Shown here: positions 2,803 through 52,286 of the stretch, in pieces | How the letters are laid out: each line of letters starts with the position of its first letter | Position numbering within the stretch: the first letter of the stretch is position 1 | From: Escherichia phage KIT06 | Sequence record: OQ349392.1 | Length of the DNA: 64,000 bases | Direction: 5' to 3' (one strand) | The notes under the pieces: generated by a model | The model's database searches: none | Told to the model about the DNA's origin: nothing | The model's input: only the letters and a program-made list of their open reading frames with translations | Position numbers and translations under genes: made by a program

Positions 2803-3320
2803 AAATGAATATTTGTTTGGGTACTACAATTCCGCAGGGTTACGTAATTGATGTCACTACCTGGGAAAATGATGGTGACAACTATAAAACCAAAACACTG
2901 TTTGGCGTAGAAGAGCATGAAATCTTACAATTCCAATATCTTTTAAAGAAGTTTAAAAGCCGACATTCTAGTACTAAAATTGAGCACTATTGTGGTAATG
3001 CTTCGTTCAGTGAGCAATCGCTTTTTATCTATGAATACTTGGTTGAAGGACTGTTCTCAGACCAACTTTATCCAGAATTCATTAAAAAGGTCTTTGATAT
3101 AGAAGTTGACCTTGGTAATAAATCTGAAGAAGATGAAGAACGTGTATTTGACTTATTCTTTGTGAATGGTAATAAAGTGCTTGAAGGACTTATTAATATT
3201 TTAGGTAATGCTTCTGAGTATTATGATTATGATTTTTTGCGTGTAGTTGAGAGTGTTAAATACTCTTATATAGAAGAAGAAATTGTTTTGCCGACCGTTA
3301 AAATGTTTAATTTGCTTTAA
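2796..3320 (+). CDS. hypothetical acidic protein
   Basis: 174-aa ORF overlapping upstream stop. Confidence 0.45.
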   Translation: MVKMNICLGTTIPQGYVIDVTTWENDGDNYKTKTLFGVEEHEILQFQYLLKKFKSRHSSTKIEHYCGNASFSEQSLFIYEYLVEGLFSDQLYPEFIKKVFDIEVDLGNKSEEDEERVFDLFFVNGNKVLEGLINILGNASEYYDYDFLRVVESVKYSYIEEEIVLPTVKMFNLL

Positions 3321-29073: not shown

Positions 29074-29547
29074 ATGTTATTGACTGGCAAATTATACAAA
29101 GAAGAAAAACAAAAATTTTATGATGCACAAAACGGTAAATGCTTAATTTGCCAACGAGAACTAAATCCTGATGTTCAAGCTAATCACCTTGACCATGACC
29201 ATGAATTAAATGGACCAAAAGCAGGAAAGGTACGTGGGTTGCTATGTAATCTCTGTAATGCTGCAGAAGGTCAAATGAAGCATAAATTCAATCGTTCTGG
29301 CTTAAAGGGACAAGGTGTTGATTATCTTGAATGGCTAGAAAATTTACTTACTTATTTAAAATCCGATTACACCCAAAATAATATTCACCCTAACTTCGTT
29401 GGAGATAAATCAAAGGAATTTTCTCGTTTAGGAAAAGAGGAAATGATGGCTGAGATGCTTCAAAGAGGATTTGAATATAATGAATCTGACACTAAAACAC
29501 AATTAATAGCTTCATTTAAGAAGCAGCTTAGAAAGAGTTTAAAATGA
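29074..29547 (+). CDS. 49: endonuclease VII (Holliday-junction resolvase)
   Basis: 157 aa MLLTGKLYKEEKQKFYDAQNGKCLICQRELNPDVQANHLDHDHELNGPKAGKVRGLLCNLCN... as recalled for T4 gp49. Confidence 0.95.
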   Translation: MLLTGKLYKEEKQKFYDAQNGKCLICQRELNPDVQANHLDHDHELNGPKAGKVRGLLCNLCNAAEGQMKHKFNRSGLKGQGVDYLEWLENLLTYLKSDYTQNNIHPNFVGDKSKEFSRLGKEEMMAEMLQRGFEYNESDTKTQLIASFKKQLRKSLK

Positions 29548-31361
29548 CAATTGAAAAAGAAATTGAAGGATTGATTCATAAAACTAATAAAGACCTTTTA
29601 AACGAGAATGCTAATAAAGATTCTCGTGTTTTTCCAACTCAACGGGACCTTATGGCTGGTATTGTGTCTAAACACATTGCCAAAAATATGGTCCCGTCTT
29701 TTATTATGAAAGCGCATGAAAGCGGAATTATTCATTTCCATGATATTGATTATTCCCCTGCTCTTCCATTTACTAATTGCTGTTTAGTAGATTTAAAAGG
29801 AATGCTTGAGAACGGATTTAAGCTCGGTAATGCACAGATTGAAACTCCTAAATCAATCGGTGTTGCTACTGCAATTATGGCACAAATTACTGCACAGGTT
29901 GCTTCCCATCAATATGGTGGAACGACTTTTGCGAATGTAGATAAAGTACTTTCTCCTTATGTTAAACGCACCTATGCAAAACATATTGAGGACGCAGAAA
30001 AATGGCAAATCGCTGATGCGTTGAATTATGCCCAATCTAAAACAGAAAAAGATGTATACGATGCATTCCAAGCTTATGAATACGAAGTAAATACTCTCTT
30101 TAGTTCAAACGGACAAACGCCTTTTGTAACAATTACATTTGGTACGGGAACTGACTGGACTGAACGAATGATTCAGAAAGCAATTCTGAAAAATCGTATT
30201 AAAGGCCTTGGTCGCGACGGGATAACTCCTATTTTCCCTAAACTTGTTATGTTCGTTGAAGAAGGTGTTAATCTTTATAAAGACGATCCGAACTATGATA
30301 TTAAGCAGCTTGCTCTAGAATGTGCAAGTAAAAGAATGTATCCTGACATCATTTCGGCTAAGAACAATAAAGCTATCACCGGTTCATCTATTCCTGTTTC
30401 TCCAATGGGTTGTCGTAGTTTCTTGGGTGTATGGAAAGATTCGACTGGTAATGAAATTCTTGATGGACGTAATAATCTTGGTGTTGTAACACTGAATCTT
30501 CCTCGCATTGCACTAGATTCTTATATTGGAACACAGTTCAATGAACAGAAATTTGCCGAATTGTTCAATGAGAGAATGGATTTATGTTTTGAAGCATTGA
30601 TGTGTAGAATTAGTTCATTAAAAGGAGTTAAAGCTACTGTTGCTCCTATTCTTTACCAAGAAGGTGCATTCGGGGTTCGTCTTAAACCTGATGACGATAT
30701 AATTGAGTTATTTAAAAACGGTAGAAGTTCAGTGTCTTTGGGATACATTGGTATTCACGAATTGAATATTCTTGTCGGTCGTGATATTGGACAAGAAATT
30801 TTAACTAAAATGAATGCTCATCTTAAGCAGTGGACTGAAAGAACTGGTTTTGCTTTTAGTTTGTATTCGACACCTGCTGAAAACCTGTGCTATCGCTTCT
30901 GTAAACTTGATACCGAAAAATATGGAAGTGTAAAAGATGTTACCGATAAAGGCTGGTACACTAACAGTTTCCACGTTTCAGTAGAAGAAAATATCACTCC
31001 GTTTGAAAAGATTTCTCGTGAAGCACCATATCATTTCATTGCGACAGGTGGTCACATTTCTTATGTTGAACTTCCTGATATGAAAAATAACCTAAAAGGT
31101 CTTGAGGCTGTATGGGATTATGCTGCGCAACATTTAGATTATTTTGGCGTTAACATGCCAGTAGATAAATGTTTTACGTGTGGAAGTACCCATGAAATGA
31201 CTCCTACTGAAAACGGATTTGTTTGTTCTATTTGTGGAGAAACTGATCCTAAAAAGATGAACACAATAAGAAGAACATGCGGATATCTTGGAACTCCTAG
31301 CGTTGTTCCATGGAATTTAGGTAAAATGAAAGAAATGGTAAAACGAGTAAAACATGCATAG
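29544..31361 (+). CDS. nrdD: anaerobic ribonucleoside-triphosphate reductase NrdD
   Basis: 605-aa uninterrupted ORF with C-terminal glycyl-radical motif RRTCGYLG and Cys cluster. Confidence 0.97.
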   Translation: MTIEKEIEGLIHKTNKDLLNENANKDSRVFPTQRDLMAGIVSKHIAKNMVPSFIMKAHESGIIHFHDIDYSPALPFTNCCLVDLKGMLENGFKLGNAQIETPKSIGVATAIMAQITAQVASHQYGGTTFANVDKVLSPYVKRTYAKHIEDAEKWQIADALNYAQSKTEKDVYDAFQAYEYEVNTLFSSNGQTPFVTITFGTGTDWTERMIQKAILKNRIKGLGRDGITPIFPKLVMFVEEGVNLYKDDPNYDIKQLALECASKRMYPDIISAKNNKAITGSSIPVSPMGCRSFLGVWKDSTGNEILDGRNNLGVVTLNLPRIALDSYIGTQFNEQKFAELFNERMDLCFEALMCRISSLKGVKATVAPILYQEGAFGVRLKPDDDIIELFKNGRSSVSLGYIGIHELNILVGRDIGQEILTKMNAHLKQWTERTGFAFSLYSTPAENLCYRFCKLDTEKYGSVKDVTDKGWYTNSFHVSVEENITPFEKISREAPYHFIATGGHISYVELPDMKNNLKGLEAVWDYAAQHLDYFGVNMPVDKCFTCGSTHEMTPTENGFVCSICGETDPKKMNTIRRTCGYLGTPSVVPWNLGKMKEMVKRVKHA

Positions 31362-32184
31362 GTATTATATAATTTATAAAATAACAAATATAATTAATTC
31401 AAAGGAATATATCGGTGCGCATAGCACCGATAACATAAATGACGGTTATATGGGGTCAGGAACATTGATTCGTGCCGCTTTATTAAAATATGGTAGAAAA
31501 AATTTTAATAAAGAAATTTTACATGTTTTTGATAATGAAAAACAAATGTATGATAAAGAAGCTGAACTCGTAACCGAAGAGTATTGTCTAAAAGAAAATA
31601 CATATAATATTAAACCTGGTGGAAAAGGTGGAACTGCCTATGAACAGACACTTGAACATCGCCGCAAAAATAGTTTAGCAAATAAAGGTAAAAAGAGAAC
31701 AGAAGAAACTAAAATAGCTATTTCACGTGCTTTAAAGAAATATAAACGTACGCCAGAGCATCAAGCAAATTTAAATAAAGCCGTAAGCATAGCTATGAAG
31801 CGAAAAGATGTTAGAAGTAAATTAGCTGGAGAGCGGTCTGAGAAAGATAAATTATCTATATCAAACGGTGTTAAAAAATATTACAATTCTTTGAGTGAAG
31901 AAGAACGCGAACTTCATCGCAAGCGAATTATTGAAGGTAAAAAGAATTCTCCCATGTCATTGGAATCTAGACAAAAGCTTTCAAAAGCTTTAAAAGGACT
32001 TCAAGTTGGTTCAAAAAATCCAATGTATGGAAAAATTTCTCCAACTAGCAAAACCGTTTCAGTTGACGGTATTAAATATGATTCAATTAAAAAGTGCTCA
32101 AATGCCATAAAAGTTTCTAGACATCTTATACTAAAACGCTGTAATTCTACTGATGAAGCTTGGAAAAATTGGATATTATTATGA
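31354..32184 (+). CDS. free-standing GIY-YIG homing endonuclease (Seg-like)
   Basis: N-terminal YIIYKITN...EYIGAHS GIY-YIG module; basic C-terminal region with NUMOD3-like GSKNPMYGK; overlaps nrdD stop and nrdG start. Confidence 0.8.
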   Translation: MHRYYIIYKITNIINSKEYIGAHSTDNINDGYMGSGTLIRAALLKYGRKNFNKEILHVFDNEKQMYDKEAELVTEEYCLKENTYNIKPGGKGGTAYEQTLEHRRKNSLANKGKKRTEETKIAISRALKKYKRTPEHQANLNKAVSIAMKRKDVRSKLAGERSEKDKLSISNGVKKYYNSLSEEERELHRKRIIEGKKNSPMSLESRQKLSKALKGLQVGSKNPMYGKISPTSKTVSVDGIKYDSIKKCSNAIKVSRHLILKRCNSTDEAWKNWILL

Positions 32185-32651
32185 ATTATGACAGAATATA
32201 CCCGTGTTGCTTTGTTAACGGTCCTGGGTGCCGAACTGTTCTTTTCGTTACAGGTTGTTTGCATAAATGTGAAGGGTGTTATAATAAATCAACATGGAAT
32301 GCTAGAAATGGCGTTCCATTCACTGGTGAAACACTAGAACAATTAATTAAATGTTTGAATAATGATTATATAGAAGGATTAACTATAACTGGAGGAGACC
32401 CTCTCTATCCAGATAACCGAGATGTTGTTCATTGCATTGTTCAAACAGTAAAAAATCTTTATCCGAATAAAAGCATTTGGTTGTGGACAGGATATAAGTT
32501 TGAAGATATTAAACAACTAGAAATGCTTAAATATGTTGATGTTATTATTGATGGGAAGTATGAGAAAAATCTTCCGACCAAAAAGCTGTGGCGAGGTTCA
32601 GATAATCAGCGACTTTGGTCAAATACCGATGGGGTGTGGAAACATGATTAA
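32181..32651 (+). CDS. nrdG: anaerobic RNR activating enzyme NrdG (radical SAM)
   Basis: MNYDRIYPCCFVNGPGCRTVLFVTGCLHKCEGCYN...; ATG 32181 overlaps the endonuclease stop. Confidence 0.9.
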   Translation: MNYDRIYPCCFVNGPGCRTVLFVTGCLHKCEGCYNKSTWNARNGVPFTGETLEQLIKCLNNDYIEGLTITGGDPLYPDNRDVVHCIVQTVKNLYPNKSIWLWTGYKFEDIKQLEMLKYVDVIIDGKYEKNLPTKKLWRGSDNQRLWSNTDGVWKHD

Positions 32652-36987: not shown

Positions 36988-38190
36988 ATGAAAGTATGTA
37001 TTTTTATGGCTCGAGGTCTTGAAGGTTGCGGTGTAACTAAATTTTCTCTTGAGCAGCGTGATTGGTTTATTAAAAATGGTCATGAAGTAACTTTGGTTTA
37101 TGCTAAAGATAAATCATTTACTCGTAATTGCGCGCATGATTATAAATCATTTTCAATTCCGGTTTTATTGGCAAAAGAATACGATAAAACGCTTAAGCTG
37201 GTAAATGATTGTGATATTCTAGTTATCAATTCAGTTCCTGCTACTTCAGTCGAAGAAGACACAATTAATAACTATAAAAAAATTATTGATAACATTAAAC
37301 CTTCGGTTCGTGTTGTAGTTTATCAGCATGACCATTCTTCTCTTTCTTTGCGTCGAAATTTGGGATTAGAAGAAACTGTTCGTCGAGCTGATGTTATTTT
37401 TAGCCATTCTGATAATGGCGATTTTAATAAAGTTTTAATGAAAGAATGGTATCCAGAAACTGTTTCACTGTTTGATGATATTGAAGAAGCACCGACTGTA
37501 TATAACTTTCAGCCTCCTATGGATATTGCGAAGGTTCGATCAACTTACTGGAAAGATGTTTCTGAAATTAACATGAATATCAACCGTTGGATTGGTCGTA
37601 CTACTACATGGAAAGGCTTTTATCAGATGTTTGATTTTCACGAAAAACATCTTAAACCTGCAGGACTAAGTACTATTATGGAAGGTCTGGAACGTTCTCC
37701 AGCGTTCATTCCTATTAAAGAAAAAGGAATTCCATACGAGTATTATCGTCTTCATCAAGTAGACCAAATTAAAATTGCTCCTAATTTGCCGACGCAAATT
37801 CTCGACCGTTATGTAAATAGCGAAATGCTTGAACGCATGAGTAAATCCGGATTTGGTTATCAGCTGAGTAAATTAGATAAAAAATATCTACAGCGTTCTT
37901 TAGAATATACTCATCTCGAGCTTGGTGCGTGTGGAACAATTCCGGTATTTTGGAAATCTACTGGCGAAAATTTAAAATTCCGTGTTGATAATACTCCGTT
38001 AATTTCACATGATAGTGGTATCGTTTGGTTTGATGAAAATGACATGGAATCAACATTTGAACGTATTAAAGAACTGTCATCTGATCGAGCTCTTTATGAC
38101 CGTGAACGTGAAAAAGCTTATGAATTTTTGTATCAGCATCAAGATTCAAGCTTCTGCTTTAAAGAACAGTTTGACATTATTACAAAATAA
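36988..38190 (+). CDS. agt: DNA alpha-glucosyltransferase
   Basis: 400 aa M(K)VCIFMARGLEGCGVTKFSLEQRDWFIKNGHEVTLVYAKDKSF... as recalled for T4 alpha-gt. Confidence 0.93.
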   Translation: MKVCIFMARGLEGCGVTKFSLEQRDWFIKNGHEVTLVYAKDKSFTRNCAHDYKSFSIPVLLAKEYDKTLKLVNDCDILVINSVPATSVEEDTINNYKKIIDNIKPSVRVVVYQHDHSSLSLRRNLGLEETVRRADVIFSHSDNGDFNKVLMKEWYPETVSLFDDIEEAPTVYNFQPPMDIAKVRSTYWKDVSEINMNINRWIGRTTTWKGFYQMFDFHEKHLKPAGLSTIMEGLERSPAFIPIKEKGIPYEYYRLHQVDQIKIAPNLPTQILDRYVNSEMLERMSKSGFGYQLSKLDKKYLQRSLEYTHLELGACGTIPVFWKSTGENLKFRVDNTPLISHDSGIVWFDENDMESTFERIKELSSDRALYDREREKAYEFLYQHQDSSFCFKEQFDIITK

Positions 38191-45144: not shown

Positions 45145-47841
45145 ATGAAAGAATTTTATATCTCTATCGAAACAGTCGGAAATAATATTGTTGAGCGTTA
45201 TATTGATGAAAACGGAAAGGAACGTACTCGTGAAGTAGAATATCTTCCGACTATGTTTAGGCATTGTAAGGAAGAGTCAAAGTACAAAGACATTTACGGT
45301 AAAAATTGCGCTCCTCAAAAATTTCCATCAATGAAAGATGCACGAGACTGGATGAAGCGAATGGAAGACATCGGTCTCGAAGCTCTTGGTATGAACGATT
45401 TTAAACTCGCTTATATCAGTGATACATATGGTTCAGAAATTGTTTATGACCGAAAATTTGTTCGTGTAGCTAACTGTGACATTGAGGTTACTGGTGATAA
45501 ATTTCCTGACCCAATGAAAGCAGAATATGAAATTGATGCTATCACTCATTATGATTCAATTGACGACCGTTTTTACGTCTTTGATTTGTTGAATTCAATG
45601 TACGGTTCAGTATCAAAATGGGATGCAAAGTTAGCTGCTAAGCTTGACTGTGAAGGTGGTGATGAAGTTCCTCAAGAAATTCTTGACCGAGTAATTTATA
45701 TGCCATTTGATAATGAGCGCGATATGCTCATGGAATATATTAATCTCTGGGAACAGAAACGACCTGCTATTTTTACTGGTTGGAATATTGAGGGATTTGA
45801 CGTTCCGTATATCATGAATCGTGTTAAAATGGTTCTCGGTGAACGTAGTATGAAACGTTTCTCTCCAATCGGTCGAGTAAAATCTAAACTAATTCAAAAT
45901 ATGTACGGTAGCAAAGAAATTTATTCTATTGATGGCGTATCTATTCTTGATTATTTAGATTTGTACAAGAAGTTCGCATTTACTAATTTGCCATCGTTCT
46001 CTTTGGAATCAGTTGCTCAACACGAAACCAAAAAAGGTAAATTGCCGTACGATGGTCCTATTAATAAACTTCGTGAGACTAATCATCAACGATACATTAG
46101 TTATAACATCATTGACGTAGAATCAGTTCAAGCAATTGATAAAATTCGTGGGTTTATCGATCTAGTTTTAAGTATGTCTTATTACGCTAAAATGCCTTTT
46201 TCTGGTGTAATGAGTCCTATTAAAACTTGGGATGCTATTATTTTTAACTCATTGAAAGGTGAACATAAGGTTATTCCTCAACAAGGTTCGCACGTTAAAC
46301 AGAGTTTTCCAGGTGCATTTGTATTTGAACCTAAACCGATTGCTCGTCGATACATTATGAGTTTTGACTTGACGTCTCTGTATCCTAGCATTATTCGTCA
46401 GGTTAACATTAGTCCTGAGACTATTCGTGGACAGTTTAAAGTTCATCCAATTCATGAATATATCGCAGGAACAGCTCCTAAGCCAAGTGATGAATATTCT
46501 TGTTCTCCGAATGGATGGATGTATGATAAGCATCAAGAAGGTATCATTCCAAAGGAAATCGCTAAAGTATTTTTCCAACGTAAAGATTGGAAAAAGAAAA
46601 TGTTCGCTGAAGAAATGAATGCCGAAGCTATTAAAAAGATTATTATGAAAGGTGCAGGGTCTTGTTCAACTAAACCAGAAGTTGAACGATATGTTAAGTT
46701 CAATGATGATTTCTTAAACGAATTATCGAATTACACTGAATCTGTTCTTAATAGTCTGATCGAAGAATGTGAAAAAGCAGCTACACTTGCTAACACAAAT
46801 CAGCTGAACCGTAAAATTCTTATTAACAGTCTTTATGGTGCTCTTGGTAATATTCATTTCCGTTACTATGATTTGCGAAATGCTACTGCTATCACAATTT
46901 TTGGTCAAGTTGGTATTCAGTGGATTGCTCGTAAAATTAATGAATACCTAAATAAAGTATGTGGAACTGATGGTGAAGATTTCATCGCGGCGGGTGATAC
47001 TGATTCGGTATATGTTTGTGTAGATAAAGTTATTGAAAAAGTAGGTCTTGACCGCTTTAAAGAACAAAATGATTTAGTTGAATTCATGAATCAGTTTGGT
47101 AAGAAAAAGATGGAACCTATGATTGATGTTGCATATCGTGAGTTATGTGATTATATGAATAACCGCGAGCATCTGATGCATATGGACCGTGAAGCTATTT
47201 CTTGCCCTCCACTTGGTTCAAAGGGTGTTGGTGGATTTTGGAAAGCGAAAAAACGTTATGCTCTGAACGTTTATGATATGGAAGATAAACGATTTGCTGA
47301 ACCGCATCTAAAAATCATGGGTATGGAAACTCAACAAAGTTCAACACCAAAAGCAGTACAAGAAGCTCTCGAAGAAAGTATTCGTCGTATTCTTCAGGAA
47401 GGTGAAGAGTCTGTCCAAGAATACTATAAGAACTTTGAGAAAGAATACCGTCAACTTGACTATAAAGTTATTGCTGAAGTAAAAACCGCGAACGATATAG
47501 CGAAATATGATGATAAAGGTTGGCCAGGGTTTAAATGCCCGTTCCATATTCGTGGTGTACTAACTTATCGTCGAGCTGTTAGTGGTTTAGGTGTAGCTCC
47601 AATTTTGGATGGAAATAAGGTAATGGTTCTTCCATTACGTGAGGGAAATCCATTTGGTGACAAGTGCATTGCTTGGCCGTCGGGTACGGAACTTCCAAAA
47701 GAAATTCGTTCTGATGTACTGTCTTGGATTGACTACTCAACTTTGTTCCAAAAATCGTTTGTTAAACCGCTTGCGGGCATGTGTGAATCGGCAGGTATGG
47801 ACTATGAGGAAAAAGCTTCGTTAGACTTCTTGTTTGGCTGA
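45145..47841 (+). CDS. 43: DNA polymerase gp43 (family B)
   Basis: 898 aa MKEFYISIETVGNNIVERYIDENGKERTRE...; polymerase motifs DTDS and KxxxNSLYG. Confidence 0.97.
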   Translation: MKEFYISIETVGNNIVERYIDENGKERTREVEYLPTMFRHCKEESKYKDIYGKNCAPQKFPSMKDARDWMKRMEDIGLEALGMNDFKLAYISDTYGSEIVYDRKFVRVANCDIEVTGDKFPDPMKAEYEIDAITHYDSIDDRFYVFDLLNSMYGSVSKWDAKLAAKLDCEGGDEVPQEILDRVIYMPFDNERDMLMEYINLWEQKRPAIFTGWNIEGFDVPYIMNRVKMVLGERSMKRFSPIGRVKSKLIQNMYGSKEIYSIDGVSILDYLDLYKKFAFTNLPSFSLESVAQHETKKGKLPYDGPINKLRETNHQRYISYNIIDVESVQAIDKIRGFIDLVLSMSYYAKMPFSGVMSPIKTWDAIIFNSLKGEHKVIPQQGSHVKQSFPGAFVFEPKPIARRYIMSFDLTSLYPSIIRQVNISPETIRGQFKVHPIHEYIAGTAPKPSDEYSCSPNGWMYDKHQEGIIPKEIAKVFFQRKDWKKKMFAEEMNAEAIKKIIMKGAGSCSTKPEVERYVKFNDDFLNELSNYTESVLNSLIEECEKAATLANTNQLNRKILINSLYGALGNIHFRYYDLRNATAITIFGQVGIQWIARKINEYLNKVCGTDGEDFIAAGDTDSVYVCVDKVIEKVGLDRFKEQNDLVEFMNQFGKKKMEPMIDVAYRELCDYMNNREHLMHMDREAISCPPLGSKGVGGFWKAKKRYALNVYDMEDKRFAEPHLKIMGMETQQSSTPKAVQEALEESIRRILQEGEESVQEYYKNFEKEYRQLDYKVIAEVKTANDIAKYDDKGWPGFKCPFHIRGVLTYRRAVSGLGVAPILDGNKVMVLPLREGNPFGDKCIAWPSGTELPKEIRSDVLSWIDYSTLFQKSFVKPLAGMCESAGMDYEEKASLDFLFG

Positions 47842-47854
47842 TAGAATAAATCTA

Positions 47855-47876
47855 GGGACCTCCGGGTCCCTTTTTC
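47855..47876 (+). terminator. rho-independent terminator
   Basis: GGGACC-TCCG-GGTCCC followed by TTTTT. Confidence 0.8.
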
Positions 47877-47959
47877 ATACAAGTAATATAAATCTATACT
47901 TAGGAAAAATAGATGATTCTGGGCCCTTTGAATTCATTAAAAATTTTTTCACAAAATGG

Positions 47960-47988
47960 TTTACATCCCGGTTCCTTTATGGTACTAT
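47960..47988 (+). promoter_or_regulatory. T4-type early promoter
   Basis: TTTACA-N17-TACTAT with TTTTTTCACAAAA upstream element. Confidence 0.7.
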
Positions 47989-48022
47989 ACAACTATCAAC
48001 TGATGCGGATTTGGAGAATGAA

Positions 48023-48403
48023 ATGAAAATCGCTATTTTGGTTATTGCATTGGGTCTTACTGGTTGTGTAGCTCAAGGACCAGTAGTAAATCAGTCTGAT
48101 GTAGGAAAAATTGTAAACTGTTCAAGCAAATTTTATAATCCTAATGTTAAGTGTTATAAAGAAGCTCCAAAACAGACAGTAGAACAAATGCAGGCGAATT
48201 TTGACGAAGCTATTCGTCCAGATGAATCTGCCCAAGCATATCGTAATTCAGATGTAATTACACGCGAAGAAAAAATTGAAAGCTACTGCGCTGAACTTTG
48301 GGCAAATTGGGCTAATAATTACCAATGGCGTACTGGTAAAAATGCTCCGATGGAGTATGTAGTAAATTCTTATAATTCATGTGTAAAAAATTTAACTAAG
48401 TGA
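48023..48403 (+). CDS. predicted lipoprotein
   Basis: ATG 48023 after GGAGAATGAA; signal peptide with lipobox LTGC. Confidence 0.55.
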   Translation: MKIAILVIALGLTGCVAQGPVVNQSDVGKIVNCSSKFYNPNVKCYKEAPKQTVEQMQANFDEAIRPDESAQAYRNSDVITREEKIESYCAELWANWANNYQWRTGKNAPMEYVVNSYNSCVKNLTK

Positions 48404-48410
48404 GGAAAAC

Positions 48411-48662
48411 ATGGAAACTTTAGTAGCAGGTTCAATTTTTATGGTTTTAGTTTCAGGCGTGTTGGCTATTATTATATACATGCTTCCATGGTTCATCGCC
48501 TTGATGCGTGGGTCAAAATCTACAGTAGGAATCTTTTTCACATCTTTACTGTTTAACTGGTCAATTATTGGTTGGTTTATTACATTTATTTGGTCAATTG
48601 CCGGTGAAACTAAAAAATCTGCACAGCAAAACCAAGTAATTATCATCAGAGAGAAGGAATGA
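48411..48662 (+). CDS. imm: immunity protein Imm (superinfection exclusion)
   Basis: 83-aa two-TM protein METLVAGSIFMVLVSGVLAIIIYMLPWFIALMRGSKSTVG... Confidence 0.9.
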   Translation: METLVAGSIFMVLVSGVLAIIIYMLPWFIALMRGSKSTVGIFFTSLLFNWSIIGWFITFIWSIAGETKKSAQQNQVIIIREKE

Positions 48663-48808
48663 AAAGCAAAATTATAGCAGTGCTGCTTTTAATCTTGATG
48701 ATTATAATAAGTATATACTATAGTGTAACGGTTCCTCTTATGATTCCAACGCTTATTATAGGGTGGAGTTTATTACTGTTACAAGTTAAATATGAATGTA
48801 TCAATTGA
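48659..48808 (+). CDS. small membrane peptide (49 aa)
   Basis: Not in the track; ATGA overlap with imm stop. Confidence 0.35.
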   Translation: MKSKIIAVLLLILMIIISIYYSVTVPLMIPTLIIGWSLLLLQVKYECIN

Positions 48809-48815
48809 GGTTTAA

Positions 48816-49556
48816 ATGATTAATGACTCTATGACAGTTGAAGAAATTCGTCTTCATTTGGGAATTGCATTAAAGGAAAAAGATTTTGTAATTGACAAAA
48901 CCGGGGTTAAAACTATTGAAATTATTGGTGCATCATTTGTAGCAGATGAACCTTTTATTTTTGGTGCTCTTAATGACGAATACATTCAGCGTGAACTTGA
49001 ATGGTATAAATCTAAAAGCTTGTTTGTTAAAGATATTCCAGGTGAAACACCGAAGATTTGGCAACAAGTAGCATCTTCTAAAGGTGAAATTAACTCGAAT
49101 TATGGTTGGGCTATCTGGTCAGAAGATAACTATGCTCAGTATGATATGTGTTTAGCTGAACTTTGTCAAAATCCTGATTCTCGACGTGGTATCATGATTT
49201 ATACTCGTCCATCCATGCAATTTGACTACAATAAAGATGGTATGTCAGATTTCATGTGTACTAATACAGTACAGTACCTGATTCGTGATAAGAAAGTCAA
49301 TGCAGTCGTTAACATGAGAAGCAATGATTGCTGGGCAGGCTATCGTAATGATTATGCATGGCAAAAATACGTATTAGATAAATTAGTATCTGATTTGAAT
49401 GCAGGCGACCCATCGCGGCAATATAAAGCAGGTTCTATTATATGGAACGTTGGAAGTCTTCATGTGTACGAAAATCAGTTTTATTTAGTTGACCATTGGT
49501 GGAACACTGGTGAAACTCATATTGCTAAAAAGGATTATACTGGAAAATGGAAGTAA
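48816..49556 (+). CDS. 42: dCMP hydroxymethylase gp42
   Basis: 246 aa MINDSMTVEEIRLHLGIALKEKDFVIDKTGVKTIEIIGASFVADEPF... Confidence 0.95.
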   Translation: MINDSMTVEEIRLHLGIALKEKDFVIDKTGVKTIEIIGASFVADEPFIFGALNDEYIQRELEWYKSKSLFVKDIPGETPKIWQQVASSKGEINSNYGWAIWSEDNYAQYDMCLAELCQNPDSRRGIMIYTRPSMQFDYNKDGMSDFMCTNTVQYLIRDKKVNAVVNMRSNDCWAGYRNDYAWQKYVLDKLVSDLNAGDPSRQYKAGSIIWNVGSLHVYENQFYLVDHWWNTGETHIAKKDYTGKWK

Positions 49557-50188
49557 ATGTGCCACATGTTTATAAGTATAAACATCCTAAAACTAAAAAG
49601 TGGTATATAGGAAGTCATGATGGTCACAACCCGAATTATGATGGTTCGGGTGTAGTTTGGCAACATGCTAAAAAGAAATATGGAATAAAATCCTTTAATA
49701 AAGAAATATTATATGAAGGACCAATGTTTAGACAAGTTGAAGAAATTATTTTAACTTGTTTAGATGCTGCTAATTGTCCGGATTCATATAATTTAAAGAA
49801 TGAAGCATGGGGAGGAAGTTTTCCAGGCAAATTAAATGGAATGTACGGTAAAAAACTATCTCCAGAAGAAAGATATAAGTGCGGAAATGCCTTTCGTGGA
49901 ATCAAGCGTCCTGATCATTCTAAAAGAATGAAAGGCGAAGGTAATCCAATGTATGGTAAAAATGAGCAGGCATATGGAATTATAAATCGAGCAAAGGAAA
50001 ATTCTGGTAAAACTTATGAAGAAATTTTTGGCGCAGAAAAAGCTAAAATAATTAAAGAAACGATGTCTAAAAATCGTAAAGGAAAACCTCATAATTTGAT
50101 AGAAAAAATATGTCCGCATTGCGGACTAAAAGGACGTGGGCCAAATATGACAAGATACCATTTTGACAAATGTAAGGCACTTAAATGA
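49547..50188 (+). CDS. free-standing GIY-YIG homing endonuclease (Seg-like)
   Basis: HVYKYKH...KKWYIGSHDG GIY-YIG module; repeated NUMOD3-like GKKLSPEE / NPMYGK motifs; overlaps gene 42 stop. Confidence 0.75.
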   Translation: MEVNVPHVYKYKHPKTKKWYIGSHDGHNPNYDGSGVVWQHAKKKYGIKSFNKEILYEGPMFRQVEEIILTCLDAANCPDSYNLKNEAWGGSFPGKLNGMYGKKLSPEERYKCGNAFRGIKRPDHSKRMKGEGNPMYGKNEQAYGIINRAKENSGKTYEEIFGAEKAKIIKETMSKNRKGKPHNLIEKICPHCGLKGRGPNMTRYHFDKCKALK

Positions 50189-51027
50189 TTCAATTTGTAA
50201 TTCCAAGTTATCAACGCGTAGGGGCAGTTTCTGCCCTTGATATGTTTCCGACTGATTATGAACCTCATATTGTAGTACGTGAACACGAAGAAAAAGCTTA
50301 TTTTGACGCTTACGGGTCTAGAGCTAAAATTATAACTATTCCTGATGATGTTAATGGAATTGCTGGAACTCGTAAAGCAATTACTGATATGTATGCAGGT
50401 CAACGAATTTGGATGATCGATGATGATACTACTATTCGTATGAGTTCAATGCGAAAGAAAGATGATCGTCGCTGCGTAGATAAAATTAATCAGTTAACTC
50501 GTGAACAGTTCTATGAATTGATTCAATATGTTGAAGATGCCATGGATTGCGGATATTATCATGGCCATGCTCGTTTACCAATTTTTAAAATTACTTCATC
50601 TTGGGGTAATTATCGTGAAAATTCATATGGATTCACGAATACATGGTATGACCTTGGAAAACTTACGACAGAACAAATTGGGTATGGAAAAATTGATTTA
50701 TGCGAAGATATGTATGCATTTCTCAATTTAATTAATCAAGGTTATCCGCATTTGGCCTTGTTCAAATATCTGGTTGTGTCTGGAAAAGCACAAGCTCCAG
50801 GTGGATGTAGTTCAATTCGTAGTAATTCAAAACATAATAGAGCTCTTGAGCAAATCAATAGAGAGTTTCCAGAGCAAGCTCGTTGGAAAACATCGAATAT
50901 TGAAAAGAGAAAATCGTTGGGTGAAGAAGACGAGCCATTAAAGGTTCTTCGCATGTGTGTTTCGCGCAAAGAAAAATCAGAAGCGTTTCATAAGTTTAAT
51001 GCTATTCATCCAATAGCAGTCGATTAA
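50185..51027 (+). CDS. GT-A-type glycosyltransferase in the beta-gt slot (possibly T2/T6 beta-glucosyl-HMC-alpha-glucosyltransferase)
   Basis: 280 aa with DxD-type motif WMIDDDTTI; unlike T4 beta-gt as recalled. Confidence 0.5.
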   Translation: MIQFVIPSYQRVGAVSALDMFPTDYEPHIVVREHEEKAYFDAYGSRAKIITIPDDVNGIAGTRKAITDMYAGQRIWMIDDDTTIRMSSMRKKDDRRCVDKINQLTREQFYELIQYVEDAMDCGYYHGHARLPIFKITSSWGNYRENSYGFTNTWYDLGKLTTEQIGYGKIDLCEDMYAFLNLINQGYPHLALFKYLVVSGKAQAPGGCSSIRSNSKHNRALEQINREFPEQARWKTSNIEKRKSLGEEDEPLKVLRMCVSRKEKSEAFHKFNAIHPIAVD

Positions 51028-51104
51028 TGCCTAAATTTATTGTGTTATAATTACTTTATCTTTAACCAGTGAGGAAAATATAATGATGCCTATGGAAAAA
51101 ATGA

Positions 51105-52286
51105 ATGTCTATTGCAGATTTAAAATCCCGTTTGATTAAAGCTTCCACTTCTAAAATGACTGCTGAACTGACTACATCTAAATTCTTTAATGAAAAGGAT
51201 GTAATCCGTACAAAAATCCCAATGCTTAATATCGCTATTTCTGGTGCGATTGATGGTGGTATGCAGTCTGGTTTAACCATTTTTGCAGGTCCTTCTAAAC
51301 ACTTTAAATCAAATATGTCTTTGACTATGGTTGCGGCGTATTTGAACAAATATCCTGATGCGGTTTGTTTATTTTATGATAGCGAATTTGGTATTACTCC
51401 AGCTTATTTGCGATCCATGGGAGTTGACCCGGAACGAGTAATTCATACACCAATTCAGTCAGTTGAACAGCTGAAAATTGATATGGTGAATCAGCTTGAA
51501 GCTATTGAGCGCGGTGAAAAAGTTATTGTATTCATCGACTCAATCGGTAATATGGCTTCTAAGAAAGAAACGGAAGATGCCTTGAATGAAAAATCTGTGG
51601 CAGATATGACTCGTGCTAAATCACTGAAGTCATTATTCCGTATTGTTACTCCTTATTTTAGTATTAAAAACATTCCGTGTGTTGCGGTTAACCACACAAT
51701 TGAAACAATTGAAATGTTTAGTAAAACCGTGATGACAGGTGGTACAGGCGTAATGTATTCGGCTGATACTGTATTCATTATCGGTAAGCGCCAGATTAAA
51801 GATGGTTCTGATCTTCAGGGGTATCAATTTGTTCTAAATGTAGAAAAATCTCGTACCGTTAAAGAAAAAAGTAAATTCTTTATTGATGTTAAATTTGACG
51901 GTGGTATCGATCCTTATTCTGGATTGTTAGATATGGCTCTTGAATTAGGATTTGTAGTAAAACCTAAAAATGGTTGGTATGCTCGTGAATTTCTTGACGA
52001 AGAAACCGGCGAGATGATTCGCGAAGAAAAATCTTGGCGTGCAAAAGATACCAATTGCACTACATTCTGGGGTCCTTTATTTAAGCATCAACCATTCCGA
52101 GATGCTATTAAACGTGCTTATCAGTTAGGTGCTATTGATAGTAATGAAATTGTTGAAGCTGAAGTTGATGAATTGATTAACTCAAAGGTTGAAAAATTTA
52201 AATCTCCAGAAAGTAAAAGTAAATCAGCCGCTGATTTAGAAACTGACCTAGATCAGTTAAGTGATATGGAAGAATTTAATGAATAA
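51105..52286 (+). CDS. uvsX: recombinase UvsX (RecA-like)
   Basis: 393 aa MSIADLKSRLIKASTSKMTAELT... Confidence 0.95.
   Translation: MSIADLKSRLIKASTSKMTAELTTSKFFNEKDVIRTKIPMLNIAISGAIDGGMQSGLTIFAGPSKHFKSNMSLTMVAAYLNKYPDAVCLFYDSEFGITPAYLRSMGVDPERVIHTPIQSVEQLKIDMVNQLEAIERGEKVIVFIDSIGNMASKKETEDALNEKSVADMTRAKSLKSLFRIVTPYFSIKNIPCVAVNHTIETIEMFSKTVMTGGTGVMYSADTVFIIGKRQIKDGSDLQGYQFVLNVEKSRTVKEKSKFFIDVKFDGGIDPYSGLLDMALELGFVVKPKNGWYAREFLDEETGEMIREEKSWRAKDTNCTTFWGPLFKHQPFRDAIKRAYQLGAIDSNEIVEAEVDELINSKVEKFKSPESKSKSAADLETDLDQLSDMEEFNE

Follow-up and report, generated by a model that had tools for sequence, protein, structure and literature searches.

Two kinds of genes known from T-even phages and their relatives meet at the locus described here. 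Free-standing endonucleases of T4 cut a conserved neighbouring gene hundreds of base pairs (bp) away from their own gene, and one of the T4 enzymes, SegA, is known to be active (PMC2988022). The intron-encoded enzymes I-TevI and I-BmoI target a homologous motif in thymidylate synthase (TS) genes (PMC5009752). As for DNA glucosylation, the genes of the alpha-glucosyltransferase (alpha-gt) and the beta-glucosyl-hydroxymethylcytosine-alpha-glucosyltransferase (ba-gt) have been described in all T-even relatives but T4 (Petrov et al. 2010, PMC2993671), and genetics on the T6 orthologue indicates that deletion of ba-gt leaves only alpha-glucosyl-hydroxymethylcytosine (alpha-glucosyl-hmC) (PMC11078745). 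We analyzed 64,000 nucleotides (nt) of Escherichia phage KIT06 (OQ349392.1; hereafter, the window), a segment of a Tequatrovirus (T-even) genome in which an open reading frame (ORF) of 213 amino acids (aa) stands between gene 42 and an ORF of 280 aa. Our interpretation, which we hold with reasonable confidence, is that the locus is made of two independent parts: a standard ba-gt of the T2/T6 type and a free-standing endonuclease that homes into gene 42.

The 213-aa ORF is an insertion that many relatives lack. In T6, T2 and many other phages, gene 42 meets ba-gt directly with an ATGA overlap; relative to T6 and T2, the window carries a precise insertion of 630 nt between the two genes. The inserted ORF overlaps the gene 42 stop by 10 nt, and its own stop overlaps the start of the 280-aa ORF by 4 nt (ATGA). 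At identities of at least 95%, the endonuclease gene was detected in 77 records, that is, in approximately 16% of the phages with ba-gt; it is missing from about 84% of them, and T2 and T6 are among the phages that lack it. Ten sampled carriers share 98.4-99.7% nucleotide identity in this ORF (nucleotide diversity, 0.011), while the flanks are more diverse (0.02-0.07), and the ORF is intact in nine of the ten. Exact insertion, sporadic distribution, low diversity and decayed copies are typical of homing endonuclease genes, and suggest that the ORF is one. Decay takes more than one form. In phage Shinka (L091, 1032-1674), a frameshift around codon 188 deletes the zinc-finger motif of the endonuclease; in three metagenomic loci (L064, L065 and L071) only 77-aa endonuclease remnants are found just after gp42.

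Assignment of the 213-aa protein needed a family alignment, as the protein alone does not reach the Pfam GIY-YIG and NCBIfam thresholds. Single-sequence matches were to the phage ‘homing endonuclease’ family phrog_314 (E 2e-31) and, below threshold, to NUMOD3 and TIGR01453. Searches of the PDB with the single sequences of the 213-aa and 280-aa proteins yielded chance matches only. Around 60 homologues of the 213-aa protein were found and 38 were aligned, with Pfam matches to SegE_GIY-YIG in 13 members, to GIY-YIG in 7 and to NUMOD3 in 23. The family profile matches the catalytic domain of I-TevI over its full length (E 1e-3), and the best structural match is to a GIY-YIG nuclease domain of the I-TevI/I-BmoI type. 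Residues Y9, Y20, G22 and N82 are conserved in the family alignment, and the acidic pair E64/E65 aligns with E75 of I-TevI. The ratio of nonsynonymous to synonymous substitution rates (dN/dS) is approximately 0.13-0.17 against orthologues in other genera, with dS near saturation. Because of this ratio and of the matches to phrog_314 and phrog_842, both the 213-aa and the 280-aa ORFs are taken as real, conserved genes and not chance ORFs. Altogether, the 213-aa protein is predicted to be a free-standing, Seg-like GIY-YIG homing endonuclease.

The sole T4 match of the 213-aa protein at an E value of at most 1e-5 is SegC, which is 35% identical over aa 7-138. Orthology to any T4 seg gene was rejected on account of this partial similarity. 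The label ‘segD’ found in record LR746311 was also discarded, as T4 segD lies between genes 23 and 24 and the only T4 match is segC. We found no published account of an endonuclease located between gene 42 and ba-gt, most subscription journals being outside our coverage. The enzyme is uncharacterised, and we view it as a new addition to the known Seg type that comes with a specific target prediction. A first-pass annotation, made from the sequence before this analysis, had called it the second GIY-YIG endonuclease of this DNA, and a paralogous Seg-like gene of 276 aa does exist at 31354-32184 (+), between nrdD (29544-31361) and nrdG (32160-32651). Its product matches phrog_314 (E 2e-60) and the profile of the 213-aa family (E 2e-25). 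The close relative vB_SsoM_113 lacks the paralogue at the corresponding site.

Linkage of the endonuclease to its neighbours was analyzed in 10 carrier and 14 non-carrier Tequatroviruses, picked singly from GenBank phage records because no more than five gene 42 loci of Tequatroviruses were available in IMG/VR. Carriers and non-carriers are separated by 33 fixed differences, every one of them within the final 240 nt of gene 42 and none in its first 500 nt or in ba-gt. Net divergence is zero up to about position 49260, reaches 0.09 in the scanning interval that starts at 49266, peaks at 0.30 in that starting at 49296, stays raised (0.07-0.21) over the rest of gene 42, and falls back to zero across ba-gt. 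Within the linked tract, the differences are concentrated in two patches: the first recodes active-site codons (CWA in carriers, VVF in non-carriers) and the second exchanges SRH for ENQ. Association of the endonuclease with patch 1 had a p value of 3e-6 in the Tequatrovirus sample, although the sampled phages are related and Fisher p values overstate their independence. Short-query megablast detected patch 1 in 75 phage records, compared with the 77 records that have the endonuclease, two figures that are separate collection totals and not a record-by-record table. The alleles of ba-gt, in turn, do not sort by carrier status, and the closest ba-gt (ime09, 99.6% aa identity) belongs to a non-carrier. 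Hence, the endonuclease is linked to gene 42, upstream, and not to ba-gt.

In phage LH2, the 17 patch-1 sites are all of the carrier type, whereas none of the remaining 16 sites is, and the endonuclease ORF is missing. The LH2 locus (L083, 1719-3968) is a mosaic in which a gene 42 with patch 1 only is followed by ba-gt and then by segA before uvsX; this segA, which adjoins ba-gt, is 99% identical to T4 segA.

The pattern recurs in another genus. Klebsiella phages (Jiaodavirus) harbor a 70%-identical endonuclease at the same site; three Jiaodavirus carriers have CWA and QNQ, whereas VVF and ERH are found in three non-carriers. The nucleotide cores of the Jiaodavirus carriers are identical to those of coliphage carriers, each on a genus-typical background. 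In 70 gp42 loci from IMG/VR, the endonuclease is found beside 7 of 30 xWA alleles, with 3 additional remnants, and beside none of 40 VVF-type alleles (Fisher p 0.0017). More distant relatives (44-65% identity), which come from quite different phages, lie in nine of nine cases directly downstream, and on the same strand, of a gene of the Thymidylat_synt family (PF00303). Their own downstream neighbours vary: the T4-type glucosyltransferase gene beta-gt in Yersinia phage MHG19, a ba-gt-like gene plus beta-gt in L108, and elsewhere dCMP deaminase, helicase or IMP dehydrogenase genes. In MHG19 (L107, 2276-4746), gene 42 is followed by a member of this endonuclease family with 65% identity, and then by beta-gt and uvsX.

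From these patterns we infer that the enzyme cleaves DNA and where it would do so, that the CWA allele is resistant, and that the gene homes; by analogy, the best reading would be intronless homing of the kind represented by SegF/gene 56 or SegG/gene 32. The endonuclease ORF, apparently devoid of a promoter of its own, would be translated from the gene 42 transcript. In a mixed infection, the enzyme would cut the gene 42 of phages without the endonuclease at or near active-site codons 175-185 (AATGAC GTG GTC TTC GGA). Recombinational repair from the carrier genome would then copy the stretch that runs from the cut through the endonuclease ORF. Carriers would be self-protected by the recoded CWA patch, while repair tracts that stop early would give rise to resistant phages without endonuclease, LH2 being a possible example, and ba-gt would be a downstream bystander. 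The putative cut is placed about 210-240 bp upstream of the endonuclease gene, and not at the junction, because the linked block has an abrupt left edge and no counterpart on the ba-gt side. Patch 1 aligns with QRSVD-VFL-G/LPFN of T4 thymidylate synthase, and the td intron is inserted one codon after VFL, which puts patch 1 inside the homing site of I-TevI (PMC5009752). Intron-encoded and free-standing GIY-YIG enzymes would thus make use of one and the same active-site motif in two paralogous genes.

Neither a T4 late promoter (TATAAATA) nor a MotA-box promoter motif was found within 48400-51200, an observation consistent with a promoter-less endonuclease cassette. Matches resembling sigma-70 promoters and terminators occur in this interval only at the frequency expected after shuffling, and no own promoter could be assigned.

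A broader proposal is tentative, and we give it less credence than doubt: the family might be an undescribed lineage of free-standing GIY-YIG enzymes specialised on TS-superfamily genes in unrelated phages, at the same motif as I-TevI and I-BmoI. The VVF-to-CWA change would be its resistance mutation, and the family would set the recombination boundary where beta-gt, ba-gt or both are exchanged.

Besides the relatedness of the sampled phages and the separate origin of the two database totals, several observations weigh against homing into gene 42 at patch 1. Patch 2 is not obligatory, as the carrier L108 keeps SRH. Two separate patches cannot both be the site of one GIY-YIG enzyme, and the data do not show which of them matters, if either. 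Other T4-like clades have xWA...ENQ as their native gp42 allele and no endonuclease (23 of 30 xWA loci); therefore, the linked tract could be hitch-hiking donor DNA and not an immunity determinant. More distant family members (L109, L112 and L115) adjoin VVF- or LVF-type genes, so the patch is not universally tied to the endonuclease family. In addition, the canonical arginine of I-TevI (R27 region) has no counterpart in the 213-aa family, where YxGSG is found instead; T4 SegA, an active enzyme that is 32% identical to the 213-aa protein, likewise lacks this arginine and has the same YxGSG variant. The position homologous to the I-TevI cut (a CNNNG-type motif) is uninformative, as its G is kept in both the VVF and the CWA alleles.

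Some of these observations would fit a simpler view: that the ORF is a passive or inactive relic, and that the 3′ tract of gene 42 was imported once along with it by ordinary recombination, without any role in homing or resistance. Occurrence of native xWA/ENQ alleles in clades without the ORF is compatible with this possibility, as are the missing arginine and the decay of some copies; moreover, the synonymous choices common to both genera indicate common descent of the tract. A relic would not, however, be expected to remain under purifying selection across genera (dN/dS about 0.15) and intact in nine of ten sampled carriers, nor to be 98.4-99.7% identical in phages whose flanks have diverged and recombined freely. 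Furthermore, linkage of patch 1 is complete in two genera even though the stretch that separates the two patches is again of the local type, and the family keeps its place after TS-family genes in unrelated genomes. We therefore deem the relic explanation unlikely, and retain homing into gene 42.

The first-pass annotation had taken the endonuclease next to the modification-gene swap as a hint of how the swap spreads. Spelled out, the enzyme would be the vehicle of the swap: it would cut phages that have beta-gt, or that lack a second transferase, and repair would drag ba-gt in. Some features of the locus speak for this idea: the endonuclease sits at the edge of the sole variable segment between gene 42 and uvsX; T4 shows a mirror arrangement (42 - beta-gt - segA - uvsX) in which SegA cuts uvsX; and repair of a cut in a T4-type gene 42, if one were made, would have to reach uvsX, thereby replacing beta-gt and segA. 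One would then expect ba-gt to differ with endonuclease status. No such difference was observed: there are zero fixed differences, zero net divergence and a closest ba-gt that comes from the non-carrier ime09. The endonuclease is also absent from T2, T6 and the majority (about 84%) of ba-gt phages, and its relatives adjoin beta-gt (MHG19), ba-gt plus beta-gt (L108) or neither transferase, with unrelated genes in their place. SegA itself is found beside ba-gt in LH2. As an account of how the swap spreads, the proposal did not survive this comparison, and we judge it improbable. A weaker remnant of the idea is that the gene 42-uvsX slot can have an endonuclease on either side (the one described here, or segA), and that T4 DNA cut in gene 42 during a cross could be mended in no other way than by exchange of the entire beta-gt-segA segment.

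Equally improbable to us is an active enzyme aimed elsewhere, such as at a ba-gt site or at the empty gene 42/ba-gt junction, with the gene 42 tract as a one-sided conversion tract. In its favor, intron-encoded GIY-YIG enzymes bind at the insertion site, and T2, T6 and others have kept the empty junction (TGGAAATGATTCAA). A cut at the junction should, however, convert both sides, whereas not even the first 120 nt of ba-gt are differentiated. The linked block also has an abrupt left border (about 49300) that coincides with a densely recoded conserved motif, and the relatives of the endonuclease share the upstream gene and not the downstream sequence.

The second part of the locus, the 280-aa ORF, follows established biology. 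Its product shares 98.2% identity with the enzyme of T2 and 97.9% with that of T6; it matches beta-glucosyl-HMC-alpha-glucosyltransferases in PHROG (phrog_842, E 4e-88), and its match to Pfam TAGT exceeds the cut-off. The structure model has the GT-A fold of nucleotide-sugar transferases with a DxD-type metal/UDP site. Similarity of the 280-aa protein to T4 beta-gt was undetectable (BLASTP E 3.4), nor was there a match to PF09198, and membership of the T4 beta-gt family was rejected. The motif WMIDDD is found at aa 76-81; its DDD is invariant across an alignment of the ba-gt family that reaches down to 32% identity, and the complete motif occurs in 23 of 24 sampled ba-gt genes, that of T2 included. 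The exception is the T6 reference record (L002, NC_054907), which around 3229-3240 reads WMIDD, with one Asp codon fewer. This difference could be a real variant or else a peculiarity of the stock or of sequencing; T6 is the phage with the most gentiobiosyl-hmC.

In the window, ba-gt is located downstream of gene 42, beyond the endonuclease ORF, and upstream of uvsX; alpha-gt is encoded as well, and its company makes the gene set T2/T6-like. The 280-aa protein is predicted to be a beta-glucosyl-HMC-alpha-glucosyltransferase of the T2/T6 type: a GT-A, DxD-type UDP-glucose transferase that would put a second glucose, in beta-1,6 linkage, on the alpha-glucosyl-hmC made by alpha-gt. The expected result is gentiobiosyl-hmC at some fraction of cytosines. 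Gene content thus predicts a T2/T6-style combination of alpha-glucosyl and gentiobiosyl hmC, a pattern whose degree of di-glucosylation is not readable from sequence. The first-pass annotation was right on this side of the locus. Both ORFs are where it had placed them on the plus strand, the first overlapping the gene 42 stop and the second with its WMIDDD; the 280-aa protein is, as it had stated, of the GT-A type and unlike T4 beta-gt, and the refuting outcome that it had named, an alignment with T4 beta-gt, did not occur. Its T2/T6-type gene set, with alpha-gt at 36988 (phrog_2888, E 9e-222), holds at the level of gene content.

The presence of ba-gt is the already known, ordinary state among T4 relatives. 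We found it (at least 95% identity) in about 471 phage records, compared with 29 for T4-type beta-gt (at least 90%); given these numbers and the survey of Petrov et al. (PMC2993671), it is T4, and not the phage of the window, that is the exception. Some Tequatrovirus-like genomes have ba-gt directly followed by a beta-gt homologue of 358 aa, 55% identical to T4 beta-gt (L098, phage PM136, 1601-3525; L108, 3633-5536). Coexistence of both ‘alternative’ transferases in one cassette had been noted earlier only for CC31.

Coordinates are given in Table 1. Genes on the plus strand are ordered as gene 43, imm.1, imm, 42.1, gene 42, the 213-aa ORF, the 280-aa ORF, uvsX, and genes 40 and 41. Dozens of sequenced coliphages match the full 2.6-kb stretch at 96-98% identity, and gene 42 has approximately 90% nucleotide identity with its T4, T2 and T6 counterparts.

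Table 1. Features of the gene 42-uvsX locus and of the alpha-gt gene in the window.
Feature	Position	Strand	Evidence
alpha-gt; predicted to make the alpha-glucosyl-hmC substrate of ba-gt	36988..38190	+	phrog_2888 E 9e-222
Gene 42, dCMP hydroxymethylase, 246 aa; putative endonuclease target	48816..49556	+	Pfam Thymidylat_synt E 9e-15, phrog_160 E 2.5e-66
3′ tract of gene 42, in complete linkage with the endonuclease; putative co-conversion tract	49317..49553	+	all 33 fixed differences
Patch 1, MRSND-CWA-GY versus MRSND-VVF-GF, recoded active-site codons; candidate recognition/cleavage site made resistant	49317..49343	+	17 of 27 nt are fixed differences
Patch 2, HVY-ENQ-F versus HVY-SRH-F	49469..49478	+	fixed differences
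Predicted free-standing Seg-like GIY-YIG homing endonuclease gene, 213 aa	49547..50188	+	phrog_314 E 2e-31
Alternative start, in-frame GTG with GGAAG upstream	49559	+	within the 213-aa ORF
GIY-YIG nuclease domain, aa 6-90	49562..49816	+	
NUMOD3-type DNA-binding repeats, aa ~94-140	49826..49966	+	Pfam NUMOD3 E 0.0026, below cut-off here; 23 of 38 family members match
C-terminal CxxC...H...C zinc-finger-like motif (C189, C192, H205, C209)	50111..50173	+	near-invariant family columns; model: small beta-hairpin plus helix
ba-gt, predicted beta-glucosyl-HMC-alpha-glucosyltransferase, 280 aa, GT-A fold	50185..51027	+	phrog_842 E 4e-88
DDD (DxD-type) motif, aa 79-81	50419..50427	+	invariant in family alignment
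uvsX, conserved right flank of the variable cassette	51105..52286	+	synteny with T4, T6 and T2

Two additional observations concern the sequence around these genes. A 9-bp GC-rich hairpin with a T-rich tail is found at 50219-50239 (+), inside the 5′ end of ba-gt. The annotation of phage DalCa calls this hairpin a terminator, and it may have a role in attenuation or regulation of expression; as an identical copy is present in T6, it is not part of the insertion. On the other side of gene 42, a 189-aa ORF (47834-48403, +) has a TTG start that overlaps the end of gene 43. Its match to the imm.1 family (phrog_1754) is confined to residues 64-189; hence, the true start of imm.1 is probably an internal Met around 48023.

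The ba-gt part of the locus confirms textbook T-even biology, and indicates which sugar pattern is to be expected on hmC and, hence, which host defences may be applicable. Glycosylases such as Brig1 act on alpha-glucosyl-hmC, while gentiobiosyl-hmC is protected (PMC11078745). The endonuclease part offers a natural example of putative intronless homing with a clear prediction: the enzyme would cut the active-site sequence of an essential modification gene, a sequence homologous to the I-TevI target. A natural, putatively resistant allele and endonuclease-less phages with patch 1 are already present in databases. If the prediction is true, the locus would provide a new Seg enzyme with a defined target and would explain localized marker bias at gene 42 in T-even crosses; it would also be relevant to the engineering or mixing of therapeutic Tequatroviruses.

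Comparison with known glucosyltransferases places the 280-aa protein beside those of T2 and T6, with which it shares 98% aa identity, a place in the gene 42-uvsX interval, the ATGA-type overlap with the preceding ORF and co-occurrence with alpha-gt. The differences are that the copy of the window follows the endonuclease instead of gene 42, and that the T6 record has one Asp fewer in DDD. T4 beta-gt is a GT-B fold enzyme that acts on hmC DNA with UDP-glucose. Its gene (Pfam T4-Gluco-transf) occupies the same gene 42-uvsX slot; however, the proteins lack sequence similarity, the model of the 280-aa protein is GT-A and not GT-B, and its predicted acceptor is alpha-glucosyl-hmC instead of free hmC.

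The 213-aa endonuclease resembles the T4 Seg enzymes (SegA, SegC, SegF and SegG) in its GIY-YIG domain with the YxGSG variant, its NUMOD3-type modules and its size (about 210-220 aa). Like them, its gene is intergenic, has the orientation of its neighbours, is sporadic in close relatives and shows a linked tract in the adjacent conserved gene. Nonetheless, it is not orthologous to any of them, and T4 has no endonuclease at this site. With I-TevI (T4 td intron) and I-BmoI (Bacillus mojavensis thyA intron) it shares the GIY-YIG domain, at approximately 25% identity in the nuclease domain, and a putative target gene of the same superfamily, the linked patch of gene 42 aligning with the QRSxD-VFL-G/LPFN homing site of I-TevI. 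The intron enzymes are, however, encoded inside their target genes, while the 213-aa enzyme is free-standing and its gene comes after the target. I-TevI cuts 23-25 nt from the intron insertion point; the cut proposed here would lie some 200 bp from the point of insertion.

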